Assembly (NCBI RefSeq): GCF_024502345.1
Contig: NZ_JALDNN010000001.1
Length of the DNA stretch: 64,000 bases
Direction: 5' to 3' (one strand)
Source: Escherichia coli
Lineage (GTDB): Bacteria; Pseudomonadota; Gammaproteobacteria; Enterobacterales; Enterobacteriaceae
Shown here: piece by piece, positions 36,711 to 41,460 of the stretch
Layout of the letters: each line of letters starts with the position of its first letter
Position numbering within the stretch: the stretch's first letter is position 1
Notes under the pieces: model-generated
Databases searched by the model: none
Seen by the model: only the letters and a program-made list of their open reading frames with translations
What the model was told of the DNA's origin: nothing
Program-made: the position numbers and the translations under genes

Positions 36711-37834
36711 TGCGCCATTTACGCAATATTTTTAATCTGGGTATCAAAGAGTTGCGCAGTCTACTCGGTGATAAAGCGATGCTGACATTGATTGTCTTCT
36801 CGTTTACGGTGTCGGTGTATTCGTCAGCGACCGTGACGCCAGGATCGTTAAACCTCGCGCCGATCGCCATTGCCGATATGGATCAATCGCAGTTATCGAA
36901 CCGGATCGTTAACAGCTTCTATCGCCCGTGGTTTTTGCCACCGGAGATGATCACCGCCGATGAGATGGATGCCGGACTGGACGCCGGGCGTTATACCTTT
37001 GCGATAAATATTCCGCCTAATTTTCAGCGTGATGTCCTCGCCGGACGCCAGCCGGATATTCAGGTGAACGTCGATGCCACGCGCATGAGCCAGGCATTTA
37101 CCGGCAATGGGTATATCCAGAATATTATCAACGGTGAAGTGAACAGCTTTGTCGCGCGCTACCGTGATAATAGCGAGCCGTTGGTATCGCTGGAAACCCG
37201 GATGCGCTTTAACCCGAACCTCGATCCCGCGTGGTTTGGCGGGGTGATGGCGATCATCAACAACATTACTATGCTGGCGATTGTATTGACCGGATCGGCG
37301 CTGATCCGCGAGCGTGAACACGGCACGGTGGAACACTTACTGGTGATGCCGATAACGCCGTTTGAGATCATGATGGCGAAGGTCTGGTCGATGGGGCTAG
37401 TGGTGCTGGTGGTATCGGGATTATCGCTGGTGCTGATGGTGAAAGGCGTGCTGGGCGTACCGATTGAAGGCTCGATCCCGCTGTTTATGCTGGGCGTGGC
37501 GCTCAGTCTGTTTGCCACCACGTCAATCGGCATTTTTATGGGGACGATAGCGCGTTCAATGCCGCAACTGGGGCTGCTGGTGATTCTGGTGCTGCTGCCA
37601 CTGCAAATGCTTTCCGGTGGATCCACGCCGCGCGAAAGTATGCCGCAGATGGTGCAGGACATTATGCTGACCATGCCGACGACACACTTTGTTAGCCTCG
37701 CGCAGGCCATTCTCTACCGGGGTGCCGGATTCGAAATCGTCTGGCCGCAGTTCCTGACGCTGATGGCAATTGGCGGCGCGTTTTTCACCATTGCGCTGCT
37801 GCGATTCAGGAAGACGATTGGGACAATGGCGTAA
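36710..37834 (+). CDS. yhhJ: ABC-2 family transporter permease YhhJ, about 374 aa
   Basis: ORF 36626..37834; tandem ATGATG at 36707..36712 overlapping the rbbA stop; conserved N-terminus [19 protein letters not shown]. Confidence 0.9.
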   Translation: MRHLRNIFNLGIKELRSLLGDKAMLTLIVFSFTVSVYSSATVTPGSLNLAPIAIADMDQSQLSNRIVNSFYRPWFLPPEMITADEMDAGLDAGRYTFAINIPPNFQRDVLAGRQPDIQVNVDATRMSQAFTGNGYIQNIINGEVNSFVARYRDNSEPLVSLETRMRFNPNLDPAWFGGVMAIINNITMLAIVLTGSALIREREHGTVEHLLVMPITPFEIMMAKVWSMGLVVLVVSGLSLVLMVKGVLGVPIEGSIPLFMLGVALSLFATTSIGIFMGTIARSMPQLGLLVILVLLPLQMLSGGSTPRESMPQMVQDIMLTMPTTHFVSLAQAILYRGAGFEIVWPQFLTLMAIGGAFFTIALLRFRKTIGTMA

Positions 37835-37842
37835 GGAAGGGA

Positions 37843-37900
37843 ACTTGACTTCATACTGTGATGTCATACTATTGATGTCATAAAGTGAAGTCATAAGGAC
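37843..37900 (+). promoter_or_regulatory. Candidate promoter/operator upstream of the hicA-like gene
   Basis: Inverted repeat tgacttca (37846..37853) / tgaagtca (37886..37893) bracketing tandem gtcata repeats; aagga RBS before ATG 37906. Confidence 0.45.
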
Positions 37901-37905
37901 ATGCC

Positions 37906-38181
37906 ATGAGAACCAAGGTACAGGCTTTACGGAAGAAACAAAAAAATACATTGGATCAAATATTTAAAACTCCTGTTCCTCAAGGGATCAAGTGGTCTGA
38001 TATAGAGTCACTGGTTAAAGCATTAGGCGGAGAAATTAAGGAAGGAAGAGGTTCGCGTTGTAAGTTCATACTAAATATGAGCGTTGCGTGTTTCCATCGG
38101 CCTCATCCGTCGCCAGATACCGATAAAGGCGCTGTAGAAAGCGTGCGTGACTGGTTACTAAGTATAGGGGTAAAACCATGA
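37906..38181 (+). CDS. HicA-like (YcfA family) type II toxin, putative mRNA interferase, 91 aa
   Basis: Small ORF with HicA-like pattern (KWSDIESLVKALGGEIKEGRGSRCKF...FHRPHP...KGAVESVRDWLLSIG); 4-bp ATGA overlap with the downstream antitoxin-like ORF. Confidence 0.7.
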   Translation: MRTKVQALRKKQKNTLDQIFKTPVPQGIKWSDIESLVKALGGEIKEGRGSRCKFILNMSVACFHRPHPSPDTDKGAVESVRDWLLSIGVKP

Positions 38182-38537
38182 TCAAACTGAAGACGCCAAA
38201 CTCTATGGAGATTGCCGGGCAACCTGCTGTTATCACTTACGTGCCAGAACTGAATGCATTTCGTGGCAAATTCCTGGGCTTGTCAGGTTATTGTGATTTT
38301 GTCTCTGACAGCATTCAGGGGCTGCAAAAAGAAGGGGAACTTTCCCTGCGAGAGTATCTTGAGGATTGTAAAGCTGCGGGTATTGAGCCGTATGCGCGTA
38401 CAGAAAAGATTAAGACCTTTACGTTACGCTATCCAGAATCGCTGAGTGAACGCCTTAATAATGCGGCTGCGCAGCAACAAGTCTCTGTTAATACCTATAT
38501 TATTGAAACACTGAATGAGCGTTTGAATCATTTATAA
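38178..38537 (+). CDS. HicB-like type II antitoxin with C-terminal ribbon-helix-helix DNA-binding tail, 119 aa
   Basis: N-terminal HicB-like fold signature (YxGxxxxxxELNAFRGKFLGLSGYCDFVSDSIQGL...EYLEDCKAAGIEP) and C-terminal RHH-like segment (FTLRYPESLSERLNNAAAQQQVSVNTYIIETLNERL). Confidence 0.75.
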   Translation: MIKLKTPNSMEIAGQPAVITYVPELNAFRGKFLGLSGYCDFVSDSIQGLQKEGELSLREYLEDCKAAGIEPYARTEKIKTFTLRYPESLSERLNNAAAQQQVSVNTYIIETLNERLNHL

Positions 38538-38591
38538 ATTTTAGCGGCGTACATTACGCAGAATATCTGCCTTTACAGGATCTATCTATGC

Positions 38592-38624
38592 AACTGAACT
38601 TAATTTTATAAATTAAGTTCAGTT
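38592..38624. terminator. Perfect 15-bp inverted repeat with 3-nt spacer (candidate hicAB terminator or recombination/binding site)
   Basis: aactgaacttaattt-tat-aaattaagttcagtt read directly; T-rich tract follows on the plus strand. Confidence 0.5.
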
Positions 38625-38656
38625 AATATCTTTTCTTTCCTCGTTTTAGAAATAAC

Positions 38657-41460
<2,804 letters not shown>

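Follow-up and report, generated by a model that had tools for sequence, protein, structure and literature searches.

The ribbon–helix–helix (RHH) HicB antitoxins that have been characterized repress their own promoters from operators placed at the −10 element (PMC11594946). HicB3 of Yersinia pestis binds two 15 bp inverted repeats, the main one lying over the −10 element, and the HicB tetramer of Burkholderia pseudomallei binds a palindrome that overlaps the −10 element; an excess of HicA destabilizes the latter complex, and the HicB–DNA complex of Escherichia coli K-12 is likewise destabilized (PMC11594946). HicA family proteins are RNases, and hicAB modules with an RHH HicB form class 4 of the Gerdes classification.

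We describe here a chromosomal hicAB module of E. coli in which positions 37845–37895 very probably form the promoter–operator, with four short boxes as putative binding sites of the HicB RHH domain and the operon under negative autoregulation. With HicA3–HicB3 of Y. pestis (BS1/BS2) it has in common the hicA–hicB gene order and a HicB with an N-terminal domain and a C-terminal RHH, HicB or HicAB being the repressor in that system, as well as more than one operator site at a single upstream promoter, where the main Y. pestis site lies over the −10 element (PMC11594946). Y. pestis HicB3 (PDB entry 4p78) is also among the top fold matches of our HicB model, although a search of solved relatives found no match between the two at the sequence level. 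The operators differ, with two 15 bp inverted repeats in Y. pestis and four 8 bp boxes in pairs spaced by 13 bp here, and the hicA3 and hicB3 genes are 174 bp apart, whereas the two genes here overlap by 4 nt (ATGA). HicB of B. pseudomallei is the best fold match of all (6g26_B; probability 1.00, E = 9e-3), with 11% identity in the structural alignment, but a single palindromic region has been reported for it in place of a four-box array. HicAB of E. coli K-12 (hicO at promoter P2) shares the species and the toxin family; there the operator from which HicB acts as a repressor is an inverted repeat, and an excess of HicA derepresses. K-12 HicB, however, is a helix-turn-helix protein, and its genes have two promoters and lie at a different locus, whereas the present HicB is modelled as an RHH protein and no second promoter was found.

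The array lies in the 71 bp gap between the stop codon of yhhJ (an ABC-2 permease; ORF 36626–37834) and hicA, within the 64 kb stretch of DNA that was analysed as a whole and is referred to below as the window. The hicB start codon overlaps the hicA stop codon, and the two genes are on the same strand in one operon; nikR comes next and is convergent (Table 1). The hairpin in the gap between hicB and nikR is terminator-like and could work in both directions. Another terminator-like hairpin is found at 37758–37775, inside the 3′ end of yhhJ and ∼70 bp before the hicAB promoter, where it might limit read-through into hicAB.

Table 1. Features of the hicAB locus, in coordinates of the window
Feature	Position	Strand	Basis or remark
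Predicted −35 element TTGACT (T plus the first 5 nt of box 1)	37845..37850	+	Promoter scan
Box 1, TGACTTCA (family consensus form), then TA	37846..37853	+	Top enriched upstream 8-mer in relatives
Box 2, TGATGTCA, in the promoter spacer	37859..37866	+	Extra with respect to most other genera; missing in three-box E. coli
Predicted −10 element TACTAT, with boxes 2 and 3 directly on either side	37867..37872	+	Promoter scan
Box 3, TGATGTCA, directly after the −10 element	37873..37880	+	Sequence; layout in relatives
Box 4, TGAAGTCA (consensus box reversed), in the predicted 5′ UTR	37886..37893	+	Ends 2 nt before the Shine–Dalgarno sequence
Shine–Dalgarno-like AAGGA, 5 nt before the hicA ATG (37906)	37896..37900	+	Sequence
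hicA-like toxin gene, 91 amino acids	37906..38181	+	Pfam HicA_toxin PF07927, 2.2e-9, 37.7 bits against a cutoff of 27
hicB-like antitoxin gene, 119 amino acids	38178..38537	+	Pfam HicB PF05534, 2.1e-15, residues 60–112
AT-rich perfect hairpin with a 15 bp stem, hicB/nikR gap	38592..38624	.	Terminator scan; arms AACTGAACTTAATTT/AAATTAAGTTCAGTT

The initial annotation had named the first gene hicA-like and its partner an RHH-type antitoxin; the Pfam matches to HicA and HicB bear this out, with the HicB C-terminus modelled as an RHH. PGAP names the two products of identical loci HicA family toxin and HicB family antitoxin, and neither protein matched a family in NCBIfam. We classify the module as a type II toxin–antitoxin HicAB system of class 4, with the RHH assignment made at the level of models; the gene order, the HicA domain, the partial RNase H-like N-terminal domain of HicB and its modelled C-terminal RHH are all features of this class. 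hicA lies 5′ of and adjacent to hicB in 42 of the 49 related loci considered below, and HicA in other genera mostly aligns from residue 1, which supports the start codon of the 91-residue form. In BpsHicA the catalytic histidine belongs to a G-x-H motif (Gly22/His24). The invariant residues of the present HicA subfamily are G49-S50-R51 and H64/P66/H67/P68 (H64-x-P-H67-P), so that G-S-R stands where the characterized HicAs have G-x-H; the equation of R51 with the catalytic histidine is our own reading, and the active site may differ. Searching HicA against solved structures by sequence gave no match, even at E ≤ 10 and with the family profile. The module is carried by 2070 of 5426 complete E. 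coli genomes (∼38%), O157:H7 included, and is always chromosomal; E. coli K-12 MG1655 lacks it and matches the end of yhhJ only.

The array had been described at the outset as an inverted repeat, tgacttca and tgaagtca, bracketing tandem gtcata repeats with the ribosome-binding site directly after. Each of these strings is present: tgacttca at 37846–37853, its reverse complement tgaagtca at 37886–37893, gtcata at 37863–37868, 37877–37882 and 37890–37895, and then the ribosome-binding site. The parse itself did not hold, as four 8 bp boxes fit better. A repeat search returned a 24 nt direct repeat (37845–37868 and 37872–37895; 79%) and also a 21 nt imperfect inverted repeat, and both reduce to four copies of TGAnnTCATA with starts spaced by 13, 14 and 13 bp, each an 8 bp TGA/TCA pseudo-palindrome with a trailing TA. 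In order, the boxes read TGACTTCA, TGATGTCA, TGATGTCA and TGAAGTCA. What had been taken for a long inverted repeat is box 1 against box 4, which has the opposite orientation, and the gtcata copies are the right halves of boxes 2–4 plus the TA. The functional unit is the 8 bp box, present four times, rather than one long inverted repeat around tandem hexamers. The array holds four of the six matches to TGAnnTCATA in the whole window, for which 1.8 would be expected. The shorter form TGAnnTCA has 23 sites in the window; in 300 first-order Markov sequences of the same length as the window no 50 bp span held more than two, against four here.

On the basis of an alignment of 31 HicB homologues, 49 loci were retrieved from other species. 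In a test that presupposed no motif, all 8-mers were counted in the 110 bp upstream of hicA at 38 non-Escherichia loci (other Enterobacterales). The pair TGACTTCA/TGAAGTCA ranked first; it was present at every one of the 38 loci and occurred 87 times, compared with six times in 122 kb of flanking sequence (418-fold enrichment). The usual layout is box-N5-box-N18-box-N5-box, at about −71, −58, −32 and −19 from the ATG, and the dominant spacings are 13 bp (43 instances) and 26 bp (16 instances). Among 115 boxes the central dinucleotide is CT in 82, CG (a perfect palindrome) in 15 and AG (the flipped form) in seven. The family consensus of the box is TGACTTCA/TGACGTCA, i.e. TGAC(T/G)TCA, in pairs 13 bp apart, and boxes 2 and 3 of E. 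coli (TGATGTCA) deviate from it at the centre. The reversed last box also occurs in Xenorhabdus, Cedecea davisae and Citrobacter sedlakii. The yhhJ flank is found only at the Escherichia and C. sedlakii loci, and nikR at those and at two others (L007 and L008); at the remaining loci the module sits in unrelated contexts. The same box, spacing and promoter overlap accompany the module in ∼40 species, mostly in such contexts, and the boxes are thus a property of the module rather than of its surroundings.

Buttiauxella gaviniae (L038:1379–1842) has lost hicA except for its first five codons (MGYGK), which follow the four boxes and run in frame into hicB; the product is an orphan antitoxin that keeps its operator. 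Other hicB homologues are found without hicA and boxes, or are frameshifted or truncated (L028 and L047, both from Photorhabdus, and L045, L049, L051, L052 and L057), which suggests frequent decay of the module. More distant homologues have sites of their own. In a Salmonella IncFII plasmid pair, whose HicB is 52% identical and has the strand KSFTLRY, all four boxes are perfect TGACGTCA copies and the layout is unchanged; a HicB of 45% identity with the strand KRLTLRV, from an E. coli entry of the plasmid collection, goes with two tgacacca-N5-TGACGTCA pairs; and the homologue in the Ralstonia phage Dina (42%; strand GKFVLRV) has no such boxes and a palindrome GATACT-N7-AGTATC directly before hicA. 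The reading strand and the site thus appear to co-vary across distant homologues, on what is so far an anecdotal set of sequences. The hicAB pair of Dina (L056:300–1033) sits between tail genes, and ∼48 other Ralstonia phage records are alike.

Within E. coli the array exists in two forms. The usual far-upstream box is absent, since only 11 bp separate the yhhJ stop codon from box 1, and E. coli instead has an extra box (box 2) in the promoter spacer. The 13/14/13 spacing recurs in C. sedlakii, where the place of box 2 is taken by tgctgtca, a box with one mismatch. Among the complete E. coli genomes 1258 have four boxes and 787 (∼38% of carriers) have three. The three-box form is short by exactly 14 bp (window 37859–37872), as seen in L002 and L004 compared with the four-box L001 and L003. 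The 14 bp indel falls between two perfect 10 bp TGATGTCATA repeats and turns the predicted −10 element from TACTAT into TAAAGT, giving the promoter TTGACT-16-TAAAGT. We considered a recent duplication as the origin of the four-box form and rejected it: it would need three later substitutions in the 4 nt tail, and the 13/14/13 layout is shared by C. sedlakii. For these reasons a deletion between the TGATGTCATA repeats is the more likely origin of the three-box form.

A second polymorphism affects hicA itself. The start of hicA is ATGTAA in 790 E. coli genomes (window 37906–37911; L002:1159, L003:1173), with a stop at codon 2 and with an identical HicB; for this allele PGAP gives a 76-residue HicA that begins further on, at a codon that is CTG in the alignment. 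The toxin may be crippled in this lineage. The ATGTAA genomes are approximately the same set as the three-box genomes. The linkage is not strict: L003 combines four boxes with ATGTAA and L004, from Escherichia sp., combines three boxes with an intact start, so that all four combinations occur.

The boxes overlap the predicted promoter. A promoter scan gave TTGACT-16-TACTAT (9/12) as the sole σ70-like site upstream of hicA. Box 1 holds the predicted −35 element, box 2 fills the spacer, box 3 adjoins the predicted −10 element and should cover the transcription start as placed from that element, and box 4 comes before the Shine–Dalgarno sequence. The best σ70 match at nearly every related locus is arranged in the same way, with TTGAC(T/G) within a box as the −35 element and the −10 element ending at the next box. 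The scan found no promoter-like site inside hicA or upstream of hicB, and its only other match on the plus strand falls close to the end of the hicB gene, on the 3′ side; nothing thus points to an additional promoter for the antitoxin alone, unlike in K-12 hicAB.

HicB is the only protein of the module that is of a DNA-binding type. The Pfam Arc model matches it weakly, just below the cutoff, and with a profile of the HicB family the best solved relatives are the RHH proteins AmrZ and Arc (E ≃ 0.04; residues 77–118), with KTFTLRYP of HicB aligned to the Arc strand PQFNLRWP, the residues that read DNA. In this β-strand (KTFTLRY) residues Lys79, Thr82, Leu83, Arg84 and Tyr85 are invariant among the 31 homologues, and Thr80 and Phe81 are conserved in at least 90% of them. 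The AF2 model of the HicB monomer (pLDDT 82) has an N-terminal domain of four strands and a helix (pLDDT ∼90) followed by two C-terminal helices. Its top Foldseek matches are all HicB or TTHA0281 (6g26, 6u0i, 4p78, 6hpb and 2dsy; probability 0.98–1.00, E = 0.009 or worse), by protein B. pseudomallei HicB, Y. pestis HicB3, E. coli HicB and TTHA0281, with Arc lower. An artificial construct of two HicB C-terminal domains joined by a flexible linker was also modelled with AF2. It folds as β-α-α twice (E7–15/H16–28/H33–47) with a pTM of 0.71 and pLDDT > 90 in the folded blocks, and the model matches the permuted single-chain Arc 1u9p, AvtR and chains of the F-plasmid relaxosome, which we take to be the tandem-RHH protein TraY. 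An RHH at the HicB C-terminus is supported at the level of models; the sequence statistics for it are marginal, with Arc and AmrZ matched at E ≃ 0.04 and Pfam Arc below its cutoff, and one of the AF2 models is of an artificial dimer.

Operators of the RHH repressors Arc, MetJ and CopG are short sites of twofold symmetry that are read by a β-ribbon, take up several dimers and overlap the promoter. The present array resembles them in these respects, and the HicB strand aligns with the DNA-reading residues of Arc. It differs in the sequence of the box, in the 13 bp spacing and in a repressor that has an extra, toxin-binding N-terminal domain.

In the model that we favour, RHH dimers of HicB would sit on the boxes, one dimer to each box. 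With the boxes filled, RNA polymerase would be excluded at the −35 element, the spacer, the −10 element and the start, resulting in negative autoregulation. By analogy with characterized HicAB systems, an excess of HicA would probably loosen HicB from the DNA and derepress the operon. We infer that HicB is the binder, in what stoichiometry it binds, how a HicB tetramer would span boxes 13 bp apart, where transcription starts and what HicA does; repeated sites that overlap the promoter, and the inheritance of these sites with the module across unrelated contexts, are the features of an antitoxin operator that are found here. The initial annotation expected autoregulation by an RHH-type antitoxin, and the promoter overlap, the co-inheritance with the module and the RHH model all argue for it, with HicB as the presumed binder. 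With 13 bp from centre to centre, neighbouring boxes are about a quarter of a turn apart, a geometry that does not obviously favour cooperative binding. More tentatively, the four-box array with its 13 bp spacing might be a HicB operator unlike those described, which could hold two HicB tetramers across the promoter, and the E. coli alleles might form a natural series in repression strength or in decay.

The repeats could instead be reiterated promoter elements (overlapping TTGACT −35 hexamers) or the debris of duplications, with no repressor involved, which we regard as unlikely. A T followed by the box does give TTGACT, five of the six positions of a −35 hexamer, and E. coli genomes differ by the gain or loss of a 14 bp unit. 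In the set of 115 boxes, however, the TCA arm is no less invariant than the TGA arm, although a −35 element has no need of it, and two of the boxes lie 3′ of the −10 element, at 16–35 bp from the ATG, a position from which a −35 element for hicA could not act. Flips of orientation (TGAAGTCA) and perfect palindromes (TGACGTCA) likewise speak against promoter hexamers and point to a binder with twofold symmetry. As the T before the box gives TTGAC, part of the conservation could nevertheless reflect promoter function.

It is also quite improbable that the boxes are sites of a host factor other than HicB, either a CRP/Sxy-type activator, as at P1 of K-12 hicAB, or a MetJ-like RHH repressor. Known hicAB promoters do carry CRP-S sites (PMC11594946). 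There is a TGTGA at 37857–37861, but it is the only one and is followed after 6 nt by ACTAT; this best alignment, TGTGA-N6-ACTAT, has four mismatches in the right half, and a CRP or CRP-S site of the form TGTGA-N6-TCACA was rejected. The met-box AGACGTCT resembles TGACGTCA, and the plasmid and Buttiauxella boxes share their GACGTC centre with it. Met-boxes are contiguous tandem 8 bp AGACGTCT units, whereas the TGAnnTCA boxes are 13–14 bp apart and non-contiguous, and a MetJ met-box array was rejected as well. Against any host factor, the boxes accompany the module through many genera, onto plasmids and into the majority of the unrelated chromosomal contexts sampled, which fits a binder encoded by the module itself.

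An element that acts in RNA, be it a 5′ UTR structure, a HicA cleavage site or a site of translational control, is very improbable. The predicted 5′ UTR near the Shine–Dalgarno sequence includes box 4 and probably some of box 3, and the RNase activity of the HicA family would suit such a role, but boxes 1 and 2 precede the predicted transcription start, and the orientation of the boxes differs from locus to locus, a variation not to be expected of an RNA motif. An Rfam search of 37600–38800 gave no match and the predicted fold of the leader is no better than that of shuffled sequences (z = −1.03), and the RNA element was rejected on these two results. Finally, chance repeats in an AT-rich intergenic spacer, which the shortness of the boxes and the number of TGAnnTCA sites in the window might suggest, are refuted by the Markov simulation, in which such a cluster was never reached, and by the 8-mer enrichment at 38 of 38 independent loci; the pattern of the array is real.

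The reading of the array as an autorepressive HicB operator follows a principle that is well known, and the understanding of toxin–antitoxin autoregulation is unchanged by it. Searches for TGACTTCA or TGACGTCA together with antitoxin or HicB, and for hicA or hicB together with yhhJ or nikR, returned nothing relevant in the searchable literature; the consensus of the box, the four-box architecture with its 13 bp spacing and the operator of this subfamily are new with respect to the literature searched. The analysis provides an operator consensus for a widespread and uncharacterized subfamily of RHH-type HicAB modules in the Enterobacterales, and the three-box and four-box alleles of E. coli are natural material for comparing repression.
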